64,000 nt of DNA from an uncultured Clostridium sp. (GTDB taxonomy: Bacteria > Bacillota > Clostridia > TANB77 > CAG-508), in NCBI GenBank assembly GCA_947303785.1, contig CAMYZH010000003.1:596-64595 (forward strand). Reading direction: 5' to 3'. Within the stretch, counting starts at the first letter, position 1, and every line of letters begins with the position of its first letter. A model generated the notes under the pieces. The model was not told the origin of the DNA, ran no database searches, and saw only the letters and a program-made list of their open reading frames with translations. A program made the translations under genes and the position numbers. Shown here piece by piece: positions 579 to 63,100 of the stretch.

Positions 579-1283
579 TTAGATCGTAGGTTCATCAAAT
601 CTCTTATTAGGCTCTATTTGCTGTGACAATTTATGAACAATTATCTCTAAACTATTCATTAATTTTTCTAATCTAGATGCATCACACCTAAGTGACCTAC
701 AAAGCTCAATTTGAAAACATGGAACCTTAGAGTGTTTATTAATATAATTACTTACAATTGTTTTGCTAGATGCATCAAATATGCAGTCTACAGTAGTATT
801 TCCAACTACTCTGAGTTGCTCAGTTATAATTTTAAGATACTCATCTTCAGAATTAATGTTTAATCCATAATTAGTTCCAACATCAATTTCAAATGGATAA
901 TCATCTTTACATCCATGAATTTCTATCATACACCCTATTTGTTTTTCTTCTATAGTTTTTAAAATAGCATTTTTATATGCTAGTGAAACTCCTTCATTTT
1001 CCGAATTTGGATCATCACCTAAATTACAGGTTCTAATTATACCATTAGAACCTGTTTTTGCACATAAAATTTCAACAATTGGTCCTGTTAAAGTCTCGGC
1101 ACCTTTTATTTTCCCTTTTCTAATTTGTCTAACAGCATGTGGCGCTGAAATTAGGATTGGAATTTTTCCTGATTTTATCATGAAATTATTTGAATTCTCA
1201 CCAAGGCTCCCATTACAATTATTTTGTACATATTTTTCATTAATTTTTCTTATATCTTTTATAAAATCTTCAATATCATTCAC
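579..1283 (-). CDS. Hypothetical hydrolase, possibly N-formylglutamate amidohydrolase-family
   Basis: 234-aa ORF. The segment ILISAPHAV resembles the FGase segment LLxTCEHgg. This is only weak pattern recall. Confidence 0.3.
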   Translation of the reverse strand: MNDIEDFIKDIRKINEKYVQNNCNGSLGENSNNFMIKSGKIPILISAPHAVRQIRKGKIKGAETLTGPIVEILCAKTGSNGIIRTCNLGDDPNSENEGVSLAYKNAILKTIEEKQIGCMIEIHGCKDDYPFEIDVGTNYGLNINSEDEYLKIITEQLRVVGNTTVDCIFDASSKTIVSNYINKHSKVPCFQIELCRSLRCDASRLEKLMNSLEIIVHKLSQQIEPNKRFDEPTI

Positions 1284-1336
1284 TATATCAACATCCTTCT
1301 TTATACGATTTATATTAGACTTTCTATTAAAAAATT

Positions 1337-2152
1337 TTATATTTCAAGTATTTTTTTCTTTAACTCATTAATAATAGCCTTTTTGTTCTCTGAATACAGT
1401 TCAAAATCTATTGATGCATTTTCAATTATATCTTTTTCTTCATTTTGTAATGAATTTTTATTTCTATTCCTCAAAAACAGATATATTACAACCAAATCCA
1501 TTAATCTATAAGCCATAGCTTTTTTATATTTAGGATTTTCTTTATCATCTATTTTTAAACGTTTAATTCTTGGCATTTTAGCAACAGTCCAGTCATCTTG
1601 CCTTTTATCTTTATATTCATATGGGCTCACTTCATTTCTAAAAAAGGCCATAGTCCATGAACGAATCATTTCATCATATTCAGGATTTCTAACAACTTTA
1701 TCTACAAAGTCTAATTCTATCTCTTCATCAAACATTTGAAGTGTTGCAAATGTTAAATTCATTTTTATATATTTATTATTGTCTAAATAATAAACCTTTT
1801 TTAAAAGCTCTAAATCTACCTTTATTGGTAATCTTCCACTAAAATATATTACTGTTTCTTTAAACTCAAATTTATCTTTTTCTGACAAATTATTTATTAA
1901 ATTAATCTCTTCTTGTTCTACCTGCATCTCATATAGTTCACAATTATATAAAAGATTTAATAATTTGTTTAAAAACTTCTGAATCTTAACTAGTTCTTCA
2001 TTATTTTGTAAATCTAAATAATCTCTAACATTATTTGTCAAATCATCATTTAAATCAACCAAAAATCCTTCGATTGCACTTTTAACTGTCTTTTCCTGAA
2101 ATGCATTTATCATTTTTTCATATTTATCATAATAATTATTAGAGTTTCCCAT
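1337..2152 (-). CDS. Hypothetical cytoplasmic protein
   Basis: 271-aa ORF with no recognisable motif. Confidence 0.4.
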   Translation of the reverse strand: MGNSNNYYDKYEKMINAFQEKTVKSAIEGFLVDLNDDLTNNVRDYLDLQNNEELVKIQKFLNKLLNLLYNCELYEMQVEQEEINLINNLSEKDKFEFKETVIYFSGRLPIKVDLELLKKVYYLDNNKYIKMNLTFATLQMFDEEIELDFVDKVVRNPEYDEMIRSWTMAFFRNEVSPYEYKDKRQDDWTVAKMPRIKRLKIDDKENPKYKKAMAYRLMDLVVIYLFLRNRNKNSLQNEEKDIIENASIDFELYSENKKAIINELKKKILEI

Positions 2153-2231
2153 TTCTTACCTTTCTCATCTATACATCTTTTGATTTAATATATCATTTTA
2201 AATCTAGCTAGTCAATCAATTTCCTTTTCAC

Positions 2232-2260
2232 TTTACTTTTACAAAATAAAAGTATATAAT
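2232..2260 (+). promoter_or_regulatory. Sigma-A-type promoter for aqpZ (TTTACT-17 bp-TATAAT)
   Basis: -35 TTTACT at 2232-2237, a 17-bp spacer, and -10 TATAAT at 2255-2260, about 45 bp upstream of the start codon. Confidence 0.5.
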
Positions 2261-2275
2261 CACGTCAAACAAATA

Positions 2276-2294
2276 TACGAATTCAAAATTCGTA
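2276..2294 (+). promoter_or_regulatory. Perfect palindrome TACGAATT-caaa-AATTCGTA between the -10 element and the RBS of aqpZ (candidate operator)
   Basis: 8+8 perfect inverted repeat sitting between the promoter and the Shine-Dalgarno sequence GAAGGAGG. Confidence 0.4.
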
Positions 2295-2306
2295 GAAGGA
2301 GGAAAA

Positions 2307-2990
2307 ATGAAAAAATATATTTGTGAATTCATTGGTACTTTTATACTAGTACTATTAGGATGTGGAACTGCTGCAGTTACAGGAGGAGCACTAAGTATAT
2401 TAGGTGTACTTACAATATCTTTTGCTTTTGGTTTAGCTATCGTTGCAATTGCATATTCAGTAGGAAGAATTTCTGGTGGACATGTAAACCCTGCCGTATC
2501 TCTTGCTATGTTGATTAGTGGAAAAATGACAGTAAAAGACTTTTGTGGTTATGTAGTAGCTCAAATTGCTGGAGCTTTTGCTGGAGCTGGAACACTTTAT
2601 GGAATATTAAGTGCTACAAATCTTACAGATCCAGGACTTGGTGCAAATGGATATGGAGAACTTTCAATGGTAGGATTAGCTCTAGGAGCTGCAGTTATCG
2701 TTGAAATTATTGCTACATGCATATTTGTTTTAGCAATCCTTGGTGTAACTCATGATGACAAATATGATTCAATGGCTGGTCTTGTAATTGGACTTGTATT
2801 AACACTTATTCATATAGTTACAATTCCATTAACAGGAACATCTGTAAACCCTGCAAGAAGCTTCGCTCCTGCCGTAATTGTTGGAGGAACAGCTTTATCT
2901 CAAGTATGGGTATTTATAGTAGCTCCATTTATCGGTGCTGCAATCGCTGCTGTAGTATGGAAATATATTTCTTCAAATTCTGAAGAATAA
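2307..2990 (+). CDS. aqpZ: Aquaporin Z / MIP-family water channel
   Basis: Two NPA boxes (HVNPAVS and SVNPARS) and six predicted TM helices. Confidence 0.9.
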   Translation: MKKYICEFIGTFILVLLGCGTAAVTGGALSILGVLTISFAFGLAIVAIAYSVGRISGGHVNPAVSLAMLISGKMTVKDFCGYVVAQIAGAFAGAGTLYGILSATNLTDPGLGANGYGELSMVGLALGAAVIVEIIATCIFVLAILGVTHDDKYDSMAGLVIGLVLTLIHIVTIPLTGTSVNPARSFAPAVIVGGTALSQVWVFIVAPFIGAAIAAVVWKYISSNSEE

Positions 2991-3022
2991 TTTTTATTTT
3001 AAACATATCAAAAGCCACTAGT

Positions 3023-3052
3023 TATATCTTAACTAGTGGCTTAATTCTTACT
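3023..3052. terminator. Bidirectional terminator hairpin (aagccactagtt...aactagtggctt)
   Basis: 12-bp perfect stem flanked by A/T runs, lying between convergent genes. Confidence 0.6.
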
Positions 3053-3064
3053 ATTTTAAAGAAA

Positions 3065-3829
3065 CTATTTTACTTCTTTAAGTTCCATATCTGCAGAGTC
3101 TTTTAATTCTTCAACAACAGTTTCTATTAAGCTATCGCCTTCTTCTAAGTCGATTTCTAAATCTTCTGCTGTAGCACCATTAAATGAAACAGTCAATTCA
3201 AGTACTTCATCAGATAACCATTTTACTTTACCTTCAGCTTCTACACTACTTGCACCTAATTCACTTGTAAATGAATCTTCAAAACCATCAACAGATTCTT
3301 CCATAGTAGATTTCATCAAATCTATAAAATCCTCATAATCATATACATCTTTAACAGATTCATATGTTTCTTTTATTAAATCTTCCATGTCAATTGTTAA
3401 AACAAGTTTTGTTAATGTTTCATCTGTTCCATAAAGATCCATTGTCCATTCTGTTCCATCTAATCCTGCAGTAGCACTCATATCAATTGTTCCTGAGAAA
3501 TGACGTTCTTTGTTACTTGAAGTTTTTGAAGATTTGCTTGATTTTGAAGATTTTTCATCTTCATCCTCATCTTCATCTTCGTCCTCATCTTCATCTTCGT
3601 CTTCATCTTTGCTAGATTTTTTAGATTCTTTTTCATCTTCATCATTTTTATCAGATTTTTTATTTTTCTTTTCTGATGATTGTGATGTTTCTTCTTTATC
3701 ATCTTCTTTGTCTCCACTTATTTTTACATAAGCAAAAATTCCACCAGCAACAGCTAAGCAAAGAACAAGTACTAAAATGATAACCCAAACCTTAACAGCT
3801 CCTTTTTCATTTAGAAATTTCTTACTCAT
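3065..3829 (-). CDS. Membrane-anchored highly acidic protein (Lys/Ser/Asp/Glu low-complexity region)
   Basis: N-terminal TM helix. The DNA contains a (TCATCY)n repeat that encodes a (DE)n tract. Confidence 0.5.
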   Translation of the reverse strand: MSKKFLNEKGAVKVWVIILVLVLCLAVAGGIFAYVKISGDKEDDKEETSQSSEKKNKKSDKNDEDEKESKKSSKDEDEDEDEDEDEDEDEDEKSSKSSKSSKTSSNKERHFSGTIDMSATAGLDGTEWTMDLYGTDETLTKLVLTIDMEDLIKETYESVKDVYDYEDFIDLMKSTMEESVDGFEDSFTSELGASSVEAEGKVKWLSDEVLELTVSFNGATAEDLEIDLEEGDSLIETVVEELKDSADMELKEVK

Positions 3830-3868
3830 TTCTTTTCCTCCTTAAATTTTTTCATTTAGATTTATATT

Positions 3869-4594
3869 TTATTTATTAAAATATACTTGATAATTATTTT
3901 TTTGAGACAATATTTCATTTTTTTCATCTTCTGTAAGATATCCATATTCAACCATTTTTGTCAATACAATTTTTTGCCTTTGTGAAGCAAGTTCAAAATT
4001 AACTGTCGGCGCATATACTGACGGTGCATTGGGGACTCCAACTATCATAGTTGCTTCATAATCATTAAGTTGAGATGGTAATTTTTGAAAATATCCTTCA
4101 CTTGCCTCTTTTAATGAATAATATCCATCTCCATAATAACATGTATTGATATATAATTCTAAAATCTCATCTTTTTTCATGTTTTTTTCAAATTTTCTAG
4201 CCATAAATCCTTCAGCTATTTTTCTAGTAATCTCCTTATTTTGAGTAAAATACGTATTTTTTGCAAGTTGCTGAGTAATAGTACTTCCTCCCTCTACCAG
4301 TTCCTTGCTTCTAATATTTCTTATAGTTGCCCTCAAAATAGAAATTAAATCGACTCCCTTATGTTCATAAAATCTATGGTCTTCTACAGCAATTAATGCA
4401 TCCTTATAAATTTTAGGAATCTCATCTAATTTTGAATAATTATCATTTCCTTTAATTTCAGCTATTTTTTCTTCTAAGCTAGTTTCTTTTAATGCAGTTT
4501 TATACATGGAATAACCTGTTCCAATAAAAATAGATCCTATAGCTAAAACTATTAGTAAAAATATTATTATGAGCTTAAATAATAATTTTTTCAT
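3869..4594 (-). CDS. Monofunctional peptidoglycan glycosyltransferase (GT51 transglycosylase)
   Basis: N-terminal TM helix, the EDHRFYEHKGVD motif and the TITQQLAKN motif, which are typical of GT51 enzymes. Confidence 0.8.
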   Translation of the reverse strand: MKKLLFKLIIIFLLIVLAIGSIFIGTGYSMYKTALKETSLEEKIAEIKGNDNYSKLDEIPKIYKDALIAVEDHRFYEHKGVDLISILRATIRNIRSKELVEGGSTITQQLAKNTYFTQNKEITRKIAEGFMARKFEKNMKKDEILELYINTCYYGDGYYSLKEASEGYFQKLPSQLNDYEATMIVGVPNAPSVYAPTVNFELASQRQKIVLTKMVEYGYLTEDEKNEILSQKNNYQVYFNK

Positions 4595-4718
4595 AAAAAT
4601 TATACTAACCCCTTATTTAAAGTTTGTCAAAATTTATTATACCATAATTTTGTCTGTAAAATATCATAAAAAAGTATATCATTATTATTTTACAATAACA
4701 ACTAAAAAAATATTTCAT

Positions 4719-6116
4719 TTATGTTACAATATTAGCATTAATCTTATTTTCAGCTTTTTCTGTTTTTTTATCCTCTACAGGCTCCTTTTCTTCAACCTTT
4801 TCTTTAGTTTTTTCTTCAACTTTTGAGTCATCCTCTTGTTCAGATTCTTCATCATCAAGTTTTAGTTTTTTAATTGGAAATTTAGTTCCTTCAATAAGTT
4901 GTTTACTATTTCTCTTTTTATTTTCAACATTTAATAATACATCTTCTGATTCATATTGACCAGGTATAGAAATTCTTGCAACAACACATAATTCTCCGTT
5001 TTTGTTCAAAAACATTTTCATATATCTATCAAAGTTTCCTTTTCCTATTGTAGATTTATATGCAGTAGTATATTCTGTAGATGTTTTATCTATTTCAGTA
5101 GATAAATCAAATGCATAATTTTCATAAAAATCTTTAACTGCATCTGATCCTTTTTCAGCTAAAGAACTTTCTTCTATTTTAGCAGCTTCTAATATTTCTG
5201 AATTAACAATAATGTCTCCAGTATAGACATCAACATTATATACATGATATTCATCAAAGTCATCTTTTCCTATAAAAAATACAACCGACAAAATGTTATC
5301 ATTTTGTGCCCAATAATAGTCACAAGTTGTAATTGCATCATCAGGTAATTTAGTAGCCTTTTCATAAAGTTTTAGTTCTGATTCAACATATCCTTTAATT
5401 TCTTTATTGCAACCTTCAATATAAATTGAATCAATATTAATTACAGGGACTTTATATGTATTTCCAGCAATAGTCTTATTTATAGTGTCATATACTAACT
5501 CTTCATCTTCGTCAACCTTAGTGATTTCTTTTTTATTTTTTTCTTCTTTTACCTCATTTGAAACAGTATTTTCTGATTTTTTACTACTTTTTTTATCAGA
5601 TTCTTCTTTTTCTTCATCTTCATTATCTTCATCTTTTTCTTCTTTTTCAAAAATACTCTCGACTTTTTCAAATATTGAAGATAATGATTCAGGCAATACT
5701 TCTAATTTATAAAGACCATAACAACCAGCAATAAGTAATATAATAATTAAAATTAAAATAAAAAATACTTTTAATCCAGTATGTTTTTTCTTTTTTTCTT
5801 TTTTATCTTCACTGGTTTTTTTTGTAAATTTAGGCTCTTCCTTAGGTTCTTCTTTAATTTCTTCCTTAACTTCTTCTTTAGCTTCTTCCTTAGCTTCAAT
5901 TTCTGAATTTTCTGGTGGTTTTATTTCCTGTTCTTCTGTTGGTACATTTTCATCACTTTTCTCTGCTTCATTAACTTCGTTTTCTGCTGTAATTTTAACT
6001 TCATTTGGAACTTCCATTTTTGCCTGTTCTTCTAAACTCTCTTGTAAATTTACTCCACAGCTCGTACAAAACTTAGCGTTTTCGGCAACGTCAGCTCCAC
6101 ATTTAGGACATTTCAT
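4719..6116 (-). CDS. Zinc-ribbon membrane protein with an acidic linker and an extracytoplasmic domain
   Basis: N-terminal CPKCG...CTSCG zinc-ribbon motif, a K/E-rich stretch, one TM helix, then a C-terminal domain. Confidence 0.5.
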   Translation of the reverse strand: MKCPKCGADVAENAKFCTSCGVNLQESLEEQAKMEVPNEVKITAENEVNEAEKSDENVPTEEQEIKPPENSEIEAKEEAKEEVKEEIKEEPKEEPKFTKKTSEDKKEKKKKHTGLKVFFILILIIILLIAGCYGLYKLEVLPESLSSIFEKVESIFEKEEKDEDNEDEEKEESDKKSSKKSENTVSNEVKEEKNKKEITKVDEDEELVYDTINKTIAGNTYKVPVINIDSIYIEGCNKEIKGYVESELKLYEKATKLPDDAITTCDYYWAQNDNILSVVFFIGKDDFDEYHVYNVDVYTGDIIVNSEILEAAKIEESSLAEKGSDAVKDFYENYAFDLSTEIDKTSTEYTTAYKSTIGKGNFDRYMKMFLNKNGELCVVARISIPGQYESEDVLLNVENKKRNSKQLIEGTKFPIKKLKLDDEESEQEDDSKVEEKTKEKVEEKEPVEDKKTEKAENKINANIVT

Positions 6117-45670: not shown

Positions 45671-45753
45671 TGGTGCGGGTGAGAGGACTTGAACCCCCAC
45701 GGTCTCCCACTAGATCCTAAGTCTAGCGCGTCTGCCAGTTCCGCCACACCCGC
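45671..45753 (-). tRNA. tRNA-Leu (anticodon UAG) with an encoded CCA end
   Basis: The reverse complement folds as a cloverleaf: GCGGGTG acceptor, CTAGA-cTTAGga-TCTAG anticodon arm, long variable arm, GTTCAAGT T-loop and ...CACCA 3' end. Confidence 0.8.
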
Positions 45754-53118: not shown

Positions 53119-54972
53119 TTAATCTCCCTTCTTCTTTTTTAATATTTTCATTGAATTTATAATAGCAATAACAGTAACACCAACATCGGCAAAAACTGCA
53201 AGCCACATATTTGAATAGCCTATCGTGCTTAAACATAAAACTATTATTTTTACAAATAATGCAAATAAAATATTTTGTTTTACTGTTTTCATAGTCTGTT
53301 TAGATATTTTAACAGCATCTACAATTTTTGTAAGCTCATCTGTCATAATAACCACATCTGCAGCTTCAATTGCAGCATCTGATCCAATTCCTCCCATAGC
53401 AATTCCAACATCTGCACGTGCAAGACATGGACTATCATTTACACCATCACCAACAAAAATAACCTTTCCTTTTCCCTTATCAATAATTTTTTCTAATTCT
53501 ATCAATTTTTCATCTGGTAACAGTTTTGCTTTAAAATCCTTTATTCCTGCCTCTTTTGCCATATATTTAGCAATACTTTCTTCATCACCTGTAGCCATAA
53601 AAGTGTGTTTTATACCAATTTTCTTTAAATTCTTAATTGCATCTTTTGCATCTGGTTTTATTTGATCAGAAATTAAAATATAACCTTTATATTCTCCATT
53701 AATCGCAAGATATACAATAGTTCCCACTTCATTTATTTGCTTAAATTTAATATTATTTTCCTTCATTAAATCAGCATTACCTATTAATGTATCACTAAAA
53801 AATACTCTTGCATGTATTCCTTTTCCTGTAATTTCTTCAAGTTCTTCTATTTTATTTTCATCATATTTTCCATTATACATATTTTTTATTGAAATCGCAA
53901 TTGGGTGATTTGAAAATTTTTCACAATGTGCTGCAATTCTGATAAATTCCTGTTTCGAAATATCACGAACTTCAATTTTTTGAATTTCAAAAACTCCTTT
54001 TGTTATAGTCCCTGTTTTATCAAAAACAATATATTTAGATTTTGATAAAGTTTCAATATAATTACTTCCTTTAATTAAAATTCCATTTTTTGAAGCTTTT
54101 CCTATTCCTGAAAAAAATCCAAGAGGTACAGAAATAACTAATGCACATGGGCAGGAAATAACTAAAAAAGTTAATGATCTATAAATCCAAACAGTAATAT
54201 CATTTTTTAATATTAACCATGGAATAAAAGCTAAGCATACAGCAAGTAAACAAACTATTGGTGTATAAAATTTTGCAAATTTAGTAATAAATCTCTCGGT
54301 ATGAGCTTTTTTAGATGTAGCCTCTTCAACAAGTTCTAAAATCTTGCTAACCGTTGAATCTTCAAATTTTTTAGTAACCTCAATTTCAATAACACTATTT
54401 AAATCGATGGAACCGCTGTATATAATATCATTTTCTGATACATTGATTGGAACAGCTTCTCCTGTAATCATTTTAGTATCAATCATAGCCTTTCCACGAA
54501 CTACAATCCCATCTAAAGGAACTTTTTCTCCTGGTTGTACGATAATTCTTTCCCCAATTTCCACCTCACTTGGGTCTACACGTTTAGTTTTCTTATTTTT
54601 ATAAATATTAGCATATTCTGGTTTTAATTTTATTAACTCTTTTATTGAATTTCTAGAATTACCAACAGCAATTCTTTGAAATTCTTCACCCATTTGGTAT
54701 AAGAACATTACAGCAATAGCTTCTGGAAATTCATTTATACAAATTGCTCCTATGGTTGCAACACACATTAAAAAGTTCTCGTCAAAAATTTCTCCTTTGA
54801 ATATATTTTTTATAGCTTTTAGAATAATATCAAAAGCAATAATTATATATGAAATTCCAAATAATATTAACCTAATAATTTCTTTATATGGAATCTCAAA
54901 ATATACTAAAATTAATGAAGAAATCGCAAATATAAGACAAATTGCTGATCTAATAATATATCTTTTATTCAT
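53119..54972 (-). CDS. cadA: Cd/Zn/Co-type heavy-metal translocating P1B-ATPase (no fused HMA domain)
   Basis: CPC in TM6, DKTGTIT, HP motif and [10 protein letters not shown] segment. Confidence 0.9.
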
Positions 54973-54989
54973 GGGAAATATCCTCCAAA

Positions 54990-55214
54990 TTATTTAATAG
55001 TAGCATCAGGCTCTATTTTATTTACAATCTTCTCAACATCTTTCATAACCTTAAGTGCATCTTCTTCAGAAAAACTACTAAATTCTATTGTTAATTTCTC
55101 CATCATAAAATTTAATGTTGCTTCCTTAACTCCGTCTAATTTGTTAATTCTTTCTTCTATTTTTGCTGCACAATTTGCACAATCAATATTTTTAATTGAA
55201 AATGATTTTTTCAT
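54990..55214 (-). CDS. Heavy-metal-associated (HMA) domain metallochaperone
   Basis: CANC metal-binding motif in a 74-aa ferredoxin-like protein. Confidence 0.75.
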   Translation of the reverse strand: MKKSFSIKNIDCANCAAKIEERINKLDGVKEATLNFMMEKLTIEFSSFSEEDALKVMKDVEKIVNKIEPDATIK

Positions 55215-55582
55215 ATATTCTCCCTCTTTTCTAAAACATGTTCTAATGCCATTTCAAAAACAATCTTTACATGTTCATCATTTAAAGAATAAATAACCAT
55301 TTTCCCATCTTTTTTATATTTAACTAAATTTGCTTCCCTTAAAATCTTTAATTGATGTGATATTGCAGATTTTGTCATTCCAAGCAGTTGAGCTAAATCA
55401 CATACACACATTGATTCTTTATCTAAAGCCCACATAATTTTTGCTCTAGTACTATCTCCCAGTATTTTAAAAAAATCAGAAACATCAAATAAAATATTTT
55501 CCTCAAGCATCTGTTTTCTTACATTTTCAATAATTTCCTCATGTAAAACATCACATTCTTGATCTTCCATTTTATCCTCCAT
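55211..55582 (-). CDS. cadC: ArsR/SmtB-family metalloregulator (CadC-like)
   Basis: HTH segment CVCDLAQLLGMTKSAISHQLKIL with the CVC metal-sensing motif. Confidence 0.85.
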   Translation of the reverse strand: MEDKMEDQECDVLHEEIIENVRKQMLEENILFDVSDFFKILGDSTRAKIMWALDKESMCVCDLAQLLGMTKSAISHQLKILREANLVKYKKDGKMVIYSLNDEHVKIVFEMALEHVLEKRENI

Positions 55583-55717
55583 TTAACTATTTATTCTTTA
55601 TATGAAAATTATAGTTGAACAGATATTCAACTGTCAATATGTTTAACACAAATGTAACAAAAAAACCTAAAACATTAAACACAAATTGTTTAACATTTTA
55701 GGTCTTTTTTATATTTT

Positions 55718-56326
55718 CTATTCTGGTAAGATTTTAATTGTGTAATAAAAATATCTTTCTTCTCCATTTACTAGATAAGAAATACTTGTTGTCAAATGTG
55801 TTGGTGAAGATATTTTGCTTAAATCTACTGATAAGCTTTGTTTATAAATTCCGCTACTTTTATATTTTATACTAGATGATACAGAACTAGAATTATTAGA
55901 AATAGCTCCATTCGAATCTAATATTTCATATTTAGCAGTTTTCCCCTCTGTATAATTATATTTTCCAGAATTATTATTATTCATAAGAATAGTAATACCA
56001 ATTGTCGATTTTCCATAATTTCTTTTTACTCTAATTGTAGATGTTAGCTTATTATCTGTTAATACATCTGATTCAAATTCCAAATTTGTAAGCAATCCAA
56101 CTCCAGTCATTGTTTCATATCTTCCAAACAAACTATTTAATCCAATTTCCAGTTTTTTATCTTCTAATGTATTAATTAGTTCCACATTTCCATTTATATT
56201 TAATTTGGATTGCCACAGCGAATATCCAGTACTCATAAAAATTATAACTATAATAACTATAACTATAATTAAAAGCAATTTTACTGGACTTTTAGTATTT
56301 CGTCTAAGTTTATAATTTTTACCCAT
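55718..56326 (-). CDS. Secreted or membrane-anchored beta-rich protein (possible SipW-type substrate)
   Basis: N-terminal KLLLIIVIV...STGYSLW region resembles a SipW-cognate signal peptide. Confidence 0.4.
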   Translation of the reverse strand: MGKNYKLRRNTKSPVKLLLIIVIVIIVIIFMSTGYSLWQSKLNINGNVELINTLEDKKLEIGLNSLFGRYETMTGVGLLTNLEFESDVLTDNKLTSTIRVKRNYGKSTIGITILMNNNNSGKYNYTEGKTAKYEILDSNGAISNNSSSVSSSIKYKSSGIYKQSLSVDLSKISSPTHLTTSISYLVNGEERYFYYTIKILPE

Positions 56327-56339
56327 TTAAACCCCATTT

Positions 56340-57401
56340 TCATCTTTTTAATATAAATCTATATATAGTATTATCTCCTAAAACACAAAACCAAGTTTCT
56401 TCTTCATTTTCATTATTCCAATACAATATTGGTTTAAACAATTCTTCAGAAACTTTTAATACTTCTTCAAATTCTCTAACATTAACTAACTTTTGTCCTT
56501 CAACATCTATTCTAGAGTTTGTTTCAACTAGTTTTTCCTCACAACCTTTAATAATCTTGTTTAATTCTATTTTGTATTCATTTCTAACAGTATTACTATT
56601 TTCAGTTTTAATTAATAATACTATTATTAAAACTAAAGAAATAGTCAATGTCACGGTAACAATGCTTCTTTTAGCCAAATCAGTTTCATTATTTTCTTGA
56701 ACCATTTTGGTGATTACTTGAGGTCTTGCAGAATCTTTGACATTTGAAGAAACAGTAGTAATTTTAGAGCCTATCTCAAAAACAATGTCAGGAGAATAGA
56801 CATTAGTAACTTCCTTTCCAAGTACATTTGTAGTTGAAGTAATTCCCATATACACTGTATATTTAGCGTTAACCTGCATTCCTAATTCTTCTTGGAATGC
56901 CTTTATAGTATCAATATTATTTTTAATATTCAAATTAATAGTTTGATCTATTTCAAAATTATCAGATTCAACACTTAATTCTGTCATAGGTACTATAACA
57001 TCTGTCTTTTTCCATACTTTCTGCTCTTGTCCATCCTTTGTATATGTAGCCTCTAAGAAACCATTAATCTGATATGTATATTTAATATCAGAAGATTGAT
57101 TTGCAACATATTGATATTTCATGTTAATATCAACATTATCCATTAAATCAGTTATAAAAACATTATCTTCTCCAACATTATCTTTATCTATATAGCTATT
57201 TTCAACCATATTCACATCATATGTATATGATGATTTATTATTATATTCATATATACTAGCTTTAATATAGCTTTTTTTGTTTGCAGAATTAAAAGAATTA
57301 TATAAAACTACTATTGACATTATTATGATAGCTAGAAGAATAATTAAATACGTATTTCTGACTGACTTCCTTATTTTGACCTTTCTTTTGTTTTTTTTCA
57401 T
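56340..57401 (-). CDS. Bitopic membrane protein (two TM helices with a large extracytoplasmic domain)
   Basis: TM helices at about residues 18-40 and 255-275. Confidence 0.4.
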   Translation of the reverse strand: MKKNKRKVKIRKSVRNTYLIILLAIIIMSIVVLYNSFNSANKKSYIKASIYEYNNKSSYTYDVNMVENSYIDKDNVGEDNVFITDLMDNVDINMKYQYVANQSSDIKYTYQINGFLEATYTKDGQEQKVWKKTDVIVPMTELSVESDNFEIDQTINLNIKNNIDTIKAFQEELGMQVNAKYTVYMGITSTTNVLGKEVTNVYSPDIVFEIGSKITTVSSNVKDSARPQVITKMVQENNETDLAKRSIVTVTLTISLVLIIVLLIKTENSNTVRNEYKIELNKIIKGCEEKLVETNSRIDVEGQKLVNVREFEEVLKVSEELFKPILYWNNENEEETWFCVLGDNTIYRFILKR

Positions 57402-57427
57402 AATCTTTTCCTCTTTCGTTTATTCTT

Positions 57428-58606
57428 TTAAACTCCTTTTTCAATACTTGAAGTATCTGGTCCTTTTATAATACCACTATTATTTAACCAAACTGCTGGC
57501 AACCCAAGATACCTGATAGAAAATAATTGTTTTGCAATTATTTGTTCTTCAGCAACAGGATTAAAATCTGCAGATTGATTATTATCTCCTTTTGTAATTA
57601 AATAACACTTTCCATCTTCATAATATTTTGAAATAACTCTATGAATAACAGTAAAATCATCTTTCTGATATTGAATGATATCTCCAACTTCAATTTCATC
57701 AGATGTACATTTCTTTAGAATTGCAACATCTCCAACCATCAATGTATTTTCCATACTTCCAGTAGCTATTGCAACAGGTCTAATTGGAAATATTCCAATT
57801 CCAAACCAAAGCATAATAACTATAGAAACCACTAAAGGTATTAAAGACTTGGGATTACTAGTAGTTTCTACTTGTTTTTTCTCTTTTCTCAAATTTTCTC
57901 GAACTTTAAGATAATGAACATACGCAAAAAGGACAGCAGACACTGAAACTTCCACAAATGTGGACATAATCCAAGAAATTTTTGGTAATATTGGTGAAAT
58001 AAACCAAAATGAAGTGGTAATTGTTCTATATACTATTGCAGGTCTATATGATTTATTCATTGCAATATATGTACATAAAACATTTTCCAAAACAACTGGT
58101 AAAAGTGTTGCAATCAAAAATTTAAGCCATGCTTTACCAACTAATTCATCAAAAGTACCAATGTCTATAAAAACAAAAACACAAGTTACAAGTAAAGCTA
58201 TAAAGGACTTATCTTTTTCATAGACATTATTTATTAACTTAAATCTTATATATTCTTTTGCTATAATTGGCAATATATATACAAATCCATTTATTATTAT
58301 TCCAATAGGTGTAGTAGAATATGGATTTTTTCCTATCTCTAAAAAGAGCTCTGATAATATAAAAATACCAATATTTACTAAAGATGCTATTAAAGCATAT
58401 TCTGTGACCTTACTTCTAATTTTAACATTCTCACTTGAAGGTGCAGTAAAGAACTTTGCAAAAATCACAAAAACAATCCAAAATAGCGGATTAACAACCA
58501 AGGAGTACATTGTTCCATACCCTTTTATCGTGTAATTCGCTATCATGGAGTACATAGCCAATATTATAAGCATAAAAATAGTATTTCTTATTGACTTTTG
58601 TAACAT
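57428..58606 (-). CDS. Signal peptidase I of SipW/Sec11 (ER-type) class fused to a ~250-aa N-terminal polytopic membrane domain
   Basis: GSMENTL box and VIHRVI His box (Ser-His dyad type) plus KGDNN, preceded by about 8 TM helices. Confidence 0.7.
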   Translation of the reverse strand: MLQKSIRNTIFMLIILAMYSMIANYTIKGYGTMYSLVVNPLFWIVFVIFAKFFTAPSSENVKIRSKVTEYALIASLVNIGIFILSELFLEIGKNPYSTTPIGIIINGFVYILPIIAKEYIRFKLINNVYEKDKSFIALLVTCVFVFIDIGTFDELVGKAWLKFLIATLLPVVLENVLCTYIAMNKSYRPAIVYRTITTSFWFISPILPKISWIMSTFVEVSVSAVLFAYVHYLKVRENLRKEKKQVETTSNPKSLIPLVVSIVIMLWFGIGIFPIRPVAIATGSMENTLMVGDVAILKKCTSDEIEVGDIIQYQKDDFTVIHRVISKYYEDGKCYLITKGDNNQSADFNPVAEEQIIAKQLFSIRYLGLPAVWLNNSGIIKGPDTSSIEKGV

Positions 58607-58675
58607 ATATTTCTCTTTTCACTTTTATTTGAGTATTTATTAAATCTTATTTTTTTACAAAATCAAAGATTTATT

Positions 58676-59209
58676 TTACCCATTAAACTCAGTTGTAGAT
58701 TGTGAATATAATAATTCTATATCAAAATCAGCATTTGCTTTTTCAACTATAGAAGATGTTTTCCATTTTACAGTAAAACTAAATGATGTAGATTCATCTG
58801 GTTGTAACACTTCTTGAGAAACATTATCAGGAATTAAAACTTCAATTTCGCTATTTGAAAAAGAAGTAGTTGTTCCTTTATTATAAAGTTTAAATCCATC
58901 TAATTTAGCTGGAACTGTTCCACCATTTTTTATATATGCTGTAACTGTACATCCATCGCCTGGATATGTAAGTTTAACGCTTACATTAAGCTTAGTAGGA
59001 TCATCTGTACTAACTTTAGCATCACCATGGTCAGGTGATGTTACTGTTCCATTTGTAAATACAACAGAGAATTTTCCTTCCGCATCAGCACTTCCTGATA
59101 TATTTAAAACTTGATTAAATGCTGCATATCCAATTGCTAAAGCTAATAACAAAACAATTAGTGCAACTACAATTACTTTTGATTTGTTTTTCATATTTTT
59201 CCTCCTCAA
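58676..59209 (-). CDS. TasA/camelysin-like secreted protein with a SipW-cognate-class signal peptide
   Basis: KVIVVALIVLLLALAIGYAAFNQ resembles the TIGR04088-type signal (…GTxAxF). The mature domain is beta-rich. Confidence 0.5.
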   Translation of the reverse strand: MRRKNMKNKSKVIVVALIVLLLALAIGYAAFNQVLNISGSADAEGKFSVVFTNGTVTSPDHGDAKVSTDDPTKLNVSVKLTYPGDGCTVTAYIKNGGTVPAKLDGFKLYNKGTTTSFSNSEIEVLIPDNVSQEVLQPDESTSFSFTVKWKTSSIVEKANADFDIELLYSQSTTEFNG

Positions 59210-59379
59210 ATCTTTTTTGATAAATTGAGTATAGCATATGTAGTTTAAAATTTTAAGTCTTTTGTGTTTCTTTTTGATTACAATTGTGTTACATTTGTAT
59301 TTTTTTATTTTATGTAATTTACGAATTATTTCATATATATTATAATATTAATATAATTAATTAATTGAGGTAATTACAA

Positions 59380-60354
59380 ATGAGTTTTGAAAACACAAAA
59401 GATTTATTAAGTTTTTTTTCTGAAGAAAATTTAAGTTTTCTAAAAAACATTAATCAAGAACTATCTAAAATTGATATTCTAACTGAAAAGAACAGAGAAA
59501 AGAAAGAAAAATATTCTTTATTTTTAACTGCCCTTACCACAAAAGACTTTTCAAATACAAATAAAGAATACTTTTTAGATGTAAAAAATATTTATTCCCT
59601 TTTAGATAATAATTCTATAACACTAAAAAATTTAAAAAATACTCTTTCACTTTTAAATGCAAGGCTATTAACATTAGTATTATCAAATGAAAACAGTAAT
59701 ACTGCAGGGCTTGTAAATCAGATAAATGACTTGTTAAATCAATATATAGAACTACTAGATGATATGAAAAAAACATTTGTGCAAAACAATATAACTATAA
59801 ACACATTTACATCATATCATTCTACTAAACTATTACTTACCACATTTGATATGGAACTTGGGGATAATTTAGATGAACAATTAACCCTTGCTTCACCTAA
59901 TGCTACATTTGGTAAAATCGAAACTACATATTCTGATTTATTAGGAATGACCGAAAATGAAACATTAATTATTTCTGAAAAAGAAAACAAAGTATACCTT
60001 CCATATAAGAAAACAGAATTAAAATCATATATGACACAATATCCGAACTCATATTATTCATATAAAAATGTTATAGAAAAAGAATTTATATTACCACTTA
60101 ATTATTTCTCTCATAATCCTTCAATAGCAAGATTCAGAGAGACATACGCATTATATCGTGACAGAGAAGCCTCAAGCATTGTAGAATCTTTAAAACAAGC
60201 ATTTCATCTTGCGTTTAAAGCAGAACTAAATCCCGCAATAATAGCTGCTTGCAAGACAAAAAAACAACTTAACAATTATCTATTATGTTTAAACGAAAAT
60301 AAAGCAGAAGAATTTGCAGATTTTAAAATAGTATATGATATGAATCCAATATAG
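59380..60354 (+). CDS. Hypothetical helical protein
   Basis: ORF with no recognisable motif. Its stop codon overlaps repeat unit 3a. Confidence 0.4.
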   Translation: MSFENTKDLLSFFSEENLSFLKNINQELSKIDILTEKNREKKEKYSLFLTALTTKDFSNTNKEYFLDVKNIYSLLDNNSITLKNLKNTLSLLNARLLTLVLSNENSNTAGLVNQINDLLNQYIELLDDMKKTFVQNNITINTFTSYHSTKLLLTTFDMELGDNLDEQLTLASPNATFGKIETTYSDLLGMTENETLIISEKENKVYLPYKKTELKSYMTQYPNSYYSYKNVIEKEFILPLNYFSHNPSIARFRETYALYRDREASSIVESLKQAFHLAFKAELNPAIIAACKTKKQLNNYLLCLNENKAEEFADFKIVYDMNPI

Positions 60355-60417
60355 TGTCAAATGGGACGGAGGATTTTGACACTAAATTTATGTCAAATGG
60401 GACGCCCTTTTTTGACA
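60354..60417. repeat. Two direct copies of the palindromic repeat unit (locus 3: 60354-60383 and 60391-60417)
   Basis: GTGTCAAATGGGACGGAGGATTTTGACACT and TGTCAAATGGGACGCCCTTTTTTGACA. Confidence 0.8.
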
Positions 60418-60502
60418 GCTTTAAAATGTATAAATAAAAAACACTAATATGTCACAGTTTTTAACTACATTCCATATTAGTGTTTTTATATTTCTTTAGT
60501 TT

Positions 60503-62735: not shown

Positions 62736-62740
62736 ATAAA

Positions 62741-63100
62741 AAGTAAGTCTATAAGCCGGGTTCTGTCTTGAATAGCCATTTATCTAGGATATATATCACT
62801 ATATACCTCAAGCCACCTACGCTAAACCAAAAAGAGACGAGCAGTCTTTATCTTTTTGTTAATTGCAAGATGTTGCTCCAGGTGGGGTTTACACGAACAA
62901 GGAATATCACTATTCCTCCGGTGAGCTCTTACCTCACCTTTTCACCCTTACCTTATATATTATAAGGCGGTAATTTTCTGTTGCACTTTCCTTAAGGTCT
63001 CCCTCACTAGACGTTATCTAGCACCATTGCTCTATGGGGCCCGGACTTTCCTCTCATGAATTCTCACGAATTTCATCAGCGACTATTCGGCTTACTCTAT
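62741..63100 (-). ncRNA. rnpB: RNase P RNA, bacterial type A
   Basis: The reverse complement contains GGAAAGTCCGGGC-CCATAG-GCA, AAGGAAAGTGCAACAGAAA, GGTAAGGGTGAAAAGGTG-GGTAAGAGC-CACC, GTGTAAACCCCACC-GGAGCAA and the 3' GACAGAACCCGGCTTA. The 5' UAAGCCG pairs with the 3' CGGCUUA to form P1. Confidence 0.85.

Follow-up and report, generated by a model that had tools for sequence, protein, structure and literature searches.

In Bacillus and in several archaea, the protein scaffold of the biofilm consists of fibres of the TasA superfamily. We know of no study of the matrix fibres of uncultured gut Clostridia. The subject here is a four-gene cassette from an uncultured gut Clostridium sp. (assembly GCA_947303785.1, contig CAMYZH010000003.1, positions 596 to 64,595), and the whole stretch of 64,000 nucleotides (nt) that was analysed is called the window. 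The open reading frames (ORFs) of the cassette encode two small proteins with N-terminal signal peptides (ORFs A and D), a polytopic signal peptidase I (ORF B) and a DUF5305 protein (ORF C). The locus is probably a minimal bacterial operon for the biogenesis of AbpX-type fibres, which belong to the TasA superfamily.

The closest described systems are the AbpX loci, named after AbpX of Pyrodictium abyssi (PDB 9SJ2 and 9RHP). Homologues of AbpX occur in Bacillota and Chloroflexota, and their loci encode a dedicated signal peptidase I with ten membrane helices, together with DUF5305 proteins, AbpX-like minor subunits and tip proteins (bioRxiv 10.64898/2026.01.04.697558, January 2026). Cryo-electron microscopy (cryo-EM) of mature AbpX shows N-terminal donor-strand complementation, in which W2 serves as an aromatic clamp and E4 binds calcium; the acidic residue at position 4 is said to be strongly conserved. 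The N-terminal extension of monomeric AbpX is reported to be unstructured (bioRxiv 10.64898/2026.01.04.697558). In TasA, the donor strand comprises residues 28-38, and F29 occupies mature position 2 (PMC9674648). Donor-strand polymerisation has been demonstrated by cryo-EM for AbpX, TasA and TafE. Pilin processing depends on the peptidase of the locus in two relatives, TafD with TafA (PMC11821415) and SipW with TasA (PMC9674648).

Gene content and conservation of the cassette

The four ORFs lie on the minus strand, at the positions given by a first-pass annotation of the same DNA, apart from the start of ORF A. Lengths are in amino acids (aa), pI is the isoelectric point, and arrows mark predicted cleavage sites.

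58676-59194, minus strand: ORF A, precursor of a putative AbpX-like major fibre subunit; 172 aa, signal peptide of 24 aa, mature part of 148 aa, pI 4.47
57428-58606, minus strand: ORF B, polytopic signal peptidase I; 392 aa, nine predicted membrane helices, catalytic domain predicted outside
56340-57401, minus strand: ORF C, DUF5305 protein; 353 aa, proposed signal-peptidase accessory
55718-56326, minus strand: ORF D, putative second substrate; 202 aa, predicted cleavage at ..Gly-Tyr-Ser36↓Leu-Trp-Gln-Ser-Lys-Leu-Asn-Ile-Asn-Gly, mature part of 166 aa, pI 8.65
55662-55706, minus strand: terminator-like hairpin; 20-bp stem followed by a T run, 12 nt past the ORF D stop, end of the operon
59380-60354, plus strand: gene U, divergent from the cassette; 324 aa, predicted cytoplasmic protein with a coiled-coil-like N-terminal half and a conserved C-terminal domain

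ORF A had been given a mechanical start at TTG 59209 (177 aa). This codon lies inside the ribosome-binding site (the sequence reads TTGAGGAGGAAAAATATG), and the real start is therefore ATG 59194, 6 nt after GAGGAGG. The public gene call is also 172 aa. ORFs A, B, C and D read as one transcription unit (55718-59194, minus strand), because they are tightly spaced and a single terminator follows ORF D. The gaps measure 69 nt between A and B, 26 nt between B and C, and 13 nt between C and D, and the hairpin is the sole terminator-like site within 55400-60500. The G+C content in the window is 25-30%, and composition is uniform across the cassette region. A promoter scan found 40 candidates against 39.5 expected in shuffled sequence, and no promoter is claimed for the operon.

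The gap between A and B (58607-58675, minus strand) contains a weak AT-rich hairpin (-10 kcal/mol, z -2.2). On this slight evidence, it might lower read-through and leave the subunit in excess. An attenuator between A and B was considered and rejected, this hairpin being the sole candidate seen.

The cassette was compared across 58 loci; some were taken from metagenome contigs and others from a scan in which each species was represented by one genome. An ORF A-like gene is present in 56 loci, a DUF5305 gene directly after the peptidase gene in 56, an ORF D-like gene (by position) in 44, and a gene U homologue, directly upstream and divergent, in 52. The A-B-C-D order and strand are kept while peptidase identity falls to 38%. 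The conserved unit is larger than the four ORFs, and it also comprises gene U and the hairpin. Nearly all named host genomes are metagenome-assembled uncultured gut or rumen Clostridia (for example from human Hadza, chicken, sheep, goat and water deer), and they include Clostridium sp. CAG:452. In the index of the assembly collection, a single orthologue cluster already appears in 331 blocks. No sortase, histidine kinase or cyclic di-GMP gene lies near the cassette.

ORF A and the AbpX family

A profile of the ORF A family was run with hmmsearch against 177,635 PDB sequences. The top two matches are both AbpX chains, 9sj2_C (E 2.9e-5) and 9rhp_A (E 3.8e-5), and the match runs over the core motif AYPG..V.VT..N.GT.PA. 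Alignment of the ORF A family with the AbpX precursor (sequence from the supplement of bioRxiv 10.64898/2026.01.04.697558) by hhalign gives a probability of 96.8%, an E of 2.5e-10 and 31% identity over 93 columns. It places ..IGLTYA↓QWSETLSLSA of AbpX opposite ..LALAIGYA↓AFNQVLNISG of ORF A, and it includes the AYPG..VT..N.GT.PA core. By these profile comparisons, ORF A is a detectable homologue of AbpX, which is a member of the TasA superfamily.

The aligned N-terminal segment contains the predicted processing site:

59093-59131, minus strand: predicted cleavage site and donor strand of ORF A; Gly-Tyr-Ala↓Ala-Phe-Asn-Gln-Val-Leu-Asn-Ile-Ser-Gly (-3 to +10)

A single N-terminal hydrophobic segment is present in each of ORFs A and D. 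In 33 ORF A homologues, four residues of the site never vary (the Tyr, the Ala at -1, Leu(+6) and Gly(+10)), and Phe(+2) is nearly invariant. The block LLALAIGYAAF..L.I.G is almost invariant, and the rest of the protein is 30-67% identical. The predicted mature N-terminus is AFNQVLNISG... The residues at -3 (Gly, Ser or Ala) and -1 (Ala or Ser) fit the signal peptidase I rule; since they are partly fixed by the regular expression used for the motif, the independent evidence is the homology-based alignment of the 33 homologues.

In the AlphaFold2 model of ORF A, which has a mean predicted local distance difference test score (pLDDT) of 89, residues 49-170 form a beta-sandwich. Residues 32-48, which follow the signal helix, have no secondary structure, as is reported for monomeric AbpX. 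Foldseek matches of the model in the PDB are weak (E ~1e-3 or worse); among them are the Fim, Pap and Csu donor-strand pilins, a TasA fibre (8aur) and the thread of Sulfolobus (7pnb). These matches are taken as compatible evidence only. Mature ORF A is acidic, with a pI of 4.47 and 12.8% Asp plus Glu (clade medians 4.46 and 12.3%). This is somewhat less extreme than AbpX, for which a pI of ~4.0 and ~15% Asp plus Glu are reported. In locus L045, two tandem ORF A-like genes (at 4610 and 5342, plus strand) precede the peptidase gene, which suggests that the major subunit is duplicated in some species.

ORF D and the shared N-terminal motif

ORFs A and D have solely the motif GY[AS][AL][FW]..xLNIxG in common, directly after the hydrophobic segment. 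A regular expression for this motif and the upstream hydrophobic stretch matches only ORFs A and D in the 64-kb window. Across the fetched loci, the matching gene is the one immediately upstream of the peptidase gene, and in about half of them the gene after DUF5305 matches as well. The predicted mature N-terminus of ORF D is LWQSKLNING... A homologue search with ORF D returns two close relatives only; ORF D evolves fast. Its family was built from the positional counterparts in the fetched loci. These align end to end, with Y35, L42, I44 and G46 invariant.

The ORF D family matches the ORF A family in hhalign with a probability of 97.6% (E 2.6e-12, 152 columns). The link to AbpX is weak (probability 66%), and the ORF D family profile has no match among the PDB sequences. 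ORF D is a candidate diverged AbpX-like minor subunit, either a cap or a nucleator.

In loci L004-L006, L026, L029 and L032, the fourth gene is replaced by one whose product has a mature part of 660-730 aa behind the same N-terminus. It lies at 8323-10419 in L004 and at 4088-6184 in L006, and the motif lies at 8420 in L026, 8350 in L029 and 8522 in L032. The protein of L004 and L006 has 698 aa, Listeria-Bacteroides repeats (PF09479) occur in L004-L006, the only case with an annotation, and an example of the N-terminus is ..SISYG↓MYSTQLVING. This protein resembles a large tip protein or adhesin that carries a donor strand. Interchangeable bodies behind a conserved donor strand would fit a cap, tip or nucleator that docks into the free groove of a subunit. 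Docking of this kind has been proposed for TapA (PMC9674648) and, in AbpX loci, for tip and anchor proteins (bioRxiv 10.64898/2026.01.04.697558).

Another ORF of the window (3869-4594, minus strand) encodes a membrane-anchored protein of 241 aa with the N-terminus ..IGTGYSMYKTAL and a weak match to the ORF D profile (E ~1e-3). Its sequence motifs indicate that it is probably a peptidoglycan transglycosylase. It was rejected as a third substrate in the window, the match being a chance 'GTGYSMY' without the LxIxG part.

ORF B, the polytopic signal peptidase

ORF B combines two regions:

57872-58606, minus strand: N-terminal eight-helix domain, residues 1-245
57431-57853, minus strand: anchor helix (residues 252-269) and catalytic domain of an archaeal/ER-type signal peptidase I (ER, endoplasmic reticulum)

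Residues 262-374 match TIGR02228, the archaeal/ER-type signal peptidase I family, with 88.7 bits (cut-off 51.85), and Peptidase_S26 matches with 28.5 bits (cut-off 22.9). The boxes are GSMEN (with Ser284), VIHRV (with His322) and GDNN (340-343). The ER-type boxes had been recognised in the first reading of the DNA, and GSMEN and VIHRV are invariant in an alignment of 29 homologues. Invariant in the same alignment are S284, H322, G340, D341, N343 and D347, and Ser284, His322, Asp341 and Asp347 are assigned as the catalytic residues. These features class ORF B as an archaeal/ER-type signal peptidase I of the Sec11/SipW type, that is, a Ser/His and not a Ser/Lys enzyme.

The AlphaFold2 model of ORF B has a mean pLDDT of 76.8. 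The first-pass annotation had counted roughly eight membrane helices in about 250 aa before the peptidase domain, and the model contains eight (6-30, 32-53, 61-86, 100-126, 130-149, 160-183, 188-203 and 212-241), followed by the anchor helix. No helix follows the catalytic domain. The Lys/Arg-rich loops read from the sequence (1-8, 54-66, 117-133, 182-194 and 229-254) all fall on the same side. Because these charged loops follow the positive-inside rule, ORF B is assigned a topology with the N-terminus inside, nine membrane helices and an extracellular catalytic domain.

The polytopic fusion is the standard architecture of this peptidase class and not a gene-calling artefact, because nearly all members of both homologue sets have about the length of the fused protein. 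A full-length search found 645 homologues, nearly all of 389-393 aa, with a coverage of 89-100%. Residues 1-250 alone found 551 representatives at E<=0.001 among 1.84 billion representatives of 50%-identity clusters; the great majority have 380-400 aa, with the domain at 1-250. Among these 645 and 551 matches, the domain was not found as a separate gene. The fusion had also been called unusual, which does not hold for the standard form of a class that a 2026 preprint had already noted.

Sampled distant members of the eight-helix family (394-637 aa) mostly have Peptidase_S26 after the domain. The shorter member P0207 is clearly truncated and ends inside the GSM box. The distant member P0257 is annotated as Chloroflexota. 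In P0255 (637 aa), a distant member from a high-G+C genome, the eight-helix and peptidase domains are followed by a further membrane segment and then by ..LAYS↓HWSETIYIQGTV. This tail closely resembles the cleavage site and donor strand of AbpX, and P0255 appears to be a peptidase fused to a substrate-like protein.

Relation to SipW and TasA: The first-pass annotation had compared the flanking genes with TasA and camelysin. That they encode small beta-rich substrates cognate to the peptidase is supported by the shared motif and the AbpX homology; the TasA/camelysin label is not, and the AbpX branch takes its place. The locus could be a true orthologue of Bacillus tapA-sipW-tasA, with TasA/camelysin subunits and SipW, but this is the least probable of the readings considered here. 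The ..YAAFNQ segment does resemble the TasA donor strand, with an aromatic residue at mature position 2 as in F29 of TasA. ORF D, which shares solely the donor-strand motif, parallels TapA. AbpX itself has a match to Peptidase_M73 that stays below the threshold (19.3 bits, cut-off 22.5).

The family assignments contradict orthology. Neither of ORFs A and D matches Peptidase_M73 (PF12389) or TIGR04088 (the SipW-cognate signal) at E<=1, although HMMER filters may drop very short weak matches in the case of TIGR04088. For the 33 ORF A homologues, Peptidase_M73 is also not among the listed 25 families with the most frequent matches. The equivalog model of Bacillus SipW (NF046067) matches ORF B over residues 280-368 only, with 57.3 bits where 190 are required. 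An eight-helix domain is absent from SipW, and DUF5305 is absent from the Bacillus operon.

The eight-helix domain: The most conserved stretch of this domain is KEYxRYKLINNVYEKDK (117-133), which is predicted to be cytoplasmic. Two outer loops are conserved as well, GxNPYS (92-97; GKNPYS in ORF B) and SPILPxxxW (204-212; SPILPK at 204-209 in ORF B). The model has two short strands in the predicted outer loops, at 91-93 and 206-208. Invariant polar residues in or near the membrane are N106, E118, R121, N175, Y180 and Y193. An internal repeat of 4+4 helices was considered and rejected (hhalign probability 1.6%).

These features raise the question of whether the domain is an independent enzyme or sorting machine, similar to an exosortase or archaeosortase, a CAAX/CPBP protease or a polymerase, in which case cleavage of the substrates would be followed by their covalent attachment or modification. 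In favour of this are the size and conservation of the domain, its constant coupling to the peptidase, its conserved outer loops and the invariant polar residues named above. Exosortases have catalytic Cys, Arg and His residues, and CPBP proteases have a Glu-Glu...Arg motif and two His motifs. The eight-helix domain, in contrast, has no invariant Cys or His in residues 1-250 of the 29 aligned homologues. Pfam and NCBIfam searches of ORF B and Pfam searches of the 29 homologues detect no family over the domain, solely the S26/S24 peptidase domain. Foldseek finds no fold match in the PDB (best E 0.13), and the substrates have no C-terminal sorting signal. The exosortase/archaeosortase and CAAX/CPBP-protease comparison, which had been suggested for this domain, thus gives no family at E<=1 and no PDB fold, and an independent enzyme is very improbable.

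A bolder proposal is that the eight-helix domain is an uncharacterised module that makes the peptidase an assembly machine. It would bind the signal peptide, while this is still embedded in the membrane, and the Gly-Tyr-Ala/Ser through the GxNPYS and SPILPxxxW loops. Cleavage would be coupled to an ordered hand-over of the strand to the growing fibre, together with DUF5305 and perhaps gene U, and there would be no calcium switch in the gut clade. In Gram-positive bacteria and archaea, ORF B would then correspond to the usher of chaperone-usher pili. This proposal is speculative, and it is considered rather doubtful.

ORF C, the DUF5305 protein

ORF C matches DUF5305 (PF17231) over residues 130-349 with 63.5 bits (cut-off 29). 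Its hydrophobic segments are at 19-37 and 246-264. The layout comprises a basic cytoplasmic N-terminus, the helix 19-37, an extracellular domain, the helix 246-264 and a cytoplasmic C-terminal domain, and it matches the description of DUF5305. The protein had been labelled bitopic; it is indeed a membrane protein encoded between the peptidase and ORF D, and it has two helices and a DUF5305 identity. DUF5305 adjoins the locus peptidase in the Tafi loci (TafG with TafD) and in AbpX loci, it is sometimes fused to that peptidase, and a role as peptidase accessory has been proposed (PMC11821415, PMC12337348, bioRxiv 10.64898/2026.01.04.697558).

Proposed mechanism and its weighing

The AbpX-type fibre operon would work as follows, each step being inferred by homology. 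The major subunit, ORF A, would be exported via Sec together with ORF D, which would be a minor subunit, cap or nucleator, and their signal peptides would hold both in the membrane. ORF B, with Ser284 and His322, would cut after the conserved Gly/Ser-Tyr-Ala/Ser. Cleavage would free an amphipathic N-terminal strand in which positions +2, +6, +8 and +10 are occupied by an aromatic residue, Leu, Ile and Gly, respectively. The freed strand would enter the open beta-sandwich of a neighbouring subunit by donor-strand complementation, and extracellular fibrils would form without a chaperone. ORF D, or the large adhesin-like protein of other species, would be located at one end of the fibril. ORF C would act with the peptidase as an accessory subunit. 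The eight-helix domain may recognise or position the signal peptide of the substrate through its conserved outer loops, which is a guess.

The idea of a dedicated fibre or matrix processing module analogous to tapA-sipW-tasA had been put forward in the first-pass annotation. It gains support from the conserved fusion, the shared cleavage and donor-strand motif, the AbpX homology and the presence of DUF5305.

Several observations weigh against a fibre operon of the AbpX type. Cleavage, secretion and polymerisation in this clade are all deduced from relatives. Fold-level support for ORF A is weak: the best Foldseek E is ~1e-3, the template-modelling (TM) scores are <=0.36, and AbpX is not among the matches listed. 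The similarity score between the ORF A and ORF D families comes partly from the signal peptides. At mature position 4, where AbpX has its calcium ligand, ORF A carries Gln and ORF D carries Ser; within the clade, an acidic residue occurs there in only 4 of 44 A-like proteins and in 4 of 25 D-like ones. The absence of this acidic residue means that the calcium switch of AbpX may be absent in the gut clade. CARDB (PF07705) matches ORF A with 22.7 bits, exactly at the cut-off of 22.7, and it also matches 21 of the 33 homologues. No SLH or LPXTG cell-wall anchor is present, and such anchors are frequent in the described bacterial AbpX loci. ORF B has nine predicted helices against the ten reported for AbpX-linked peptidases. 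That the two kinds of peptidase share their N-terminal domain is deduced from TIGR02228, the polytopic extension and the identical gene neighbourhood.

Some of these points would equally suit ORFs A and D as ordinary secreted or surface proteins of an immunoglobulin-like (Ig-like), CARDB-type fold that do not polymerise, the cassette being a maturation module for a few surface proteins. The CARDB match, the missing acidic residue in the donor strand, the weak fold matches to fibre subunits, and the lack of both anchor and chaperone can all be read in this way. However, the best PDB sequence matches of ORF A are AbpX and no other CARDB-containing chain, and the CARDB match is a generic label for an Ig-like fold, which is compatible with the AbpX assignment and gives no pointer to function. 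The segment after the cleavage site is strictly conserved where the donor strand of TasA and AbpX sits, and a plain signal peptide needs no such segment. The same N-terminus also occurs on the unrelated large proteins in the fourth position, which fits a strand that docks in a subunit groove. Non-polymerising surface proteins are therefore an unlikely explanation, and the AbpX-type fibre operon is preferred.

Gene U and other features of the window

The C-terminal domain of gene U has the motifs ISEKxxKVxLPY .. RFRExYxLxRDRE .. NPAIIAACK, and the protein has no membrane segment. Searches against Pfam, NCBIfam, PHROGs and, by profile, the PDB give nothing beyond coiled-coil noise. Gene U is probably linked to the cassette in function, perhaps as a regulator or as a cytoplasmic partner. 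Locus L004 has three gene U paralogues beside the cassette, at 1789-2865 (plus strand), 2907-3839 (minus strand) and 4087-5127 (minus strand). It also has an extra short SipW-like signal peptidase of 205 aa (1172-1789, plus strand), which has no eight-helix domain and lies directly before one of the U-like genes. U-family proteins thus occur beside signal peptidases twice within this locus.

An unrelated metal-resistance operon lies directly downstream of the cassette (53119-55582, minus strand). Its products are a P-type ATPase, a small metal-binding protein (HMA) and a regulator of the ArsR type. The operon has its own promoter at 55637-55608, past the ORF D hairpin, with a perfect sigma-70 consensus (TTGACA-18-TATAAT). 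The closest relatives, L001-L003, keep the metal-resistance operon as a neighbour. A region close to the end of the window has no long ORFs because it encodes a bacterial class A RNase P RNA (62736-63098, minus strand, 280 bits). A transfer RNA gene is located at 45674-45753 (minus strand).

Comparison with known systems

AbpX loci: ORF A resembles AbpX of P. abyssi in homology, the Sec signal, the ..Y-A cleavage site, the aromatic residue at +2 and the acidic mature protein. The similarity is detectable with profiles only. The neighbours are also alike, namely a polytopic TIGR02228 peptidase, DUF5305 and AbpX-like minor or tip proteins, and the family of the eight-helix domain likewise reaches the Chloroflexota (P0257). 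In contrast, ORF A has Gln in place of the acidic calcium ligand at +4, which is absent from most of the gut clade. The cassette has no SLH or LPXTG anchor, and its locus has the conserved divergent gene U instead. The hosts differ as well: those of the gut cassette are uncultured gut Clostridia, represented solely by metagenome-assembled genomes. AbpX loci are described from archaea, Bacillota and Chloroflexota.

Bacillus subtilis tapA-sipW-tasA: The logic is the same, in that the genes of the substrates adjoin that of an ER-type signal peptidase. In TasA, the donor strand is the mature N-terminus, with an aromatic residue at position 2 as predicted for ORF A, and TapA shares solely a donor-strand-like N-terminus with TasA, as ORF D does with ORF A (PMC9674648). 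In contrast, SipW has ~190 aa against the 392 aa of ORF B. The subunits of B. subtilis belong to Peptidase_M73, unlike ORFs A and D.

Haloarchaeal Tafi: These loci encode the pilins TafA and TafE, the peptidase TafD and the DUF5305 protein TafG. As in the cassette, the peptidase adjoins DUF5305 and donor-strand pilins (PMC11821415, PMC12337348), and there is genetic evidence that the locus peptidase processes the pilins (PMC11821415). The Tafi differ in being archaeal and in having Tat signals on most pilins. TafD has four membrane helices, an N-terminal catalytic domain and an extra C-terminal domain, and it has no counterpart of the eight-helix domain of ORF B (PMC11821415).

Clostridium perfringens sipW-bsaA: A clostridial matrix protein is here likewise described as encoded with a SipW-type peptidase (PMC7395162, PMC11580942). 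According to the description in PMC11580942, this matrix protein differs in that it polymerises through intermolecular isopeptide bonds and its secretion is tied to type IV pilus genes.

The literature of 2025-2026 already describes systems of this type, including their many-helix peptidase and the link to DUF5305, and the locus belongs to that class. Its remaining value lies in the uncharacterised eight-helix domain and in the compact cassette, which has no regulators. A four-gene cassette without regulators or wall anchors is well suited to tests of the role of the polytopic domain, of the role of DUF5305 and of polymerisation without the calcium-binding residue. The comparison places a compact version of the AbpX type, widespread in the uncultured Clostridia of human and animal guts, beside the archaeal and bacterial loci already described.

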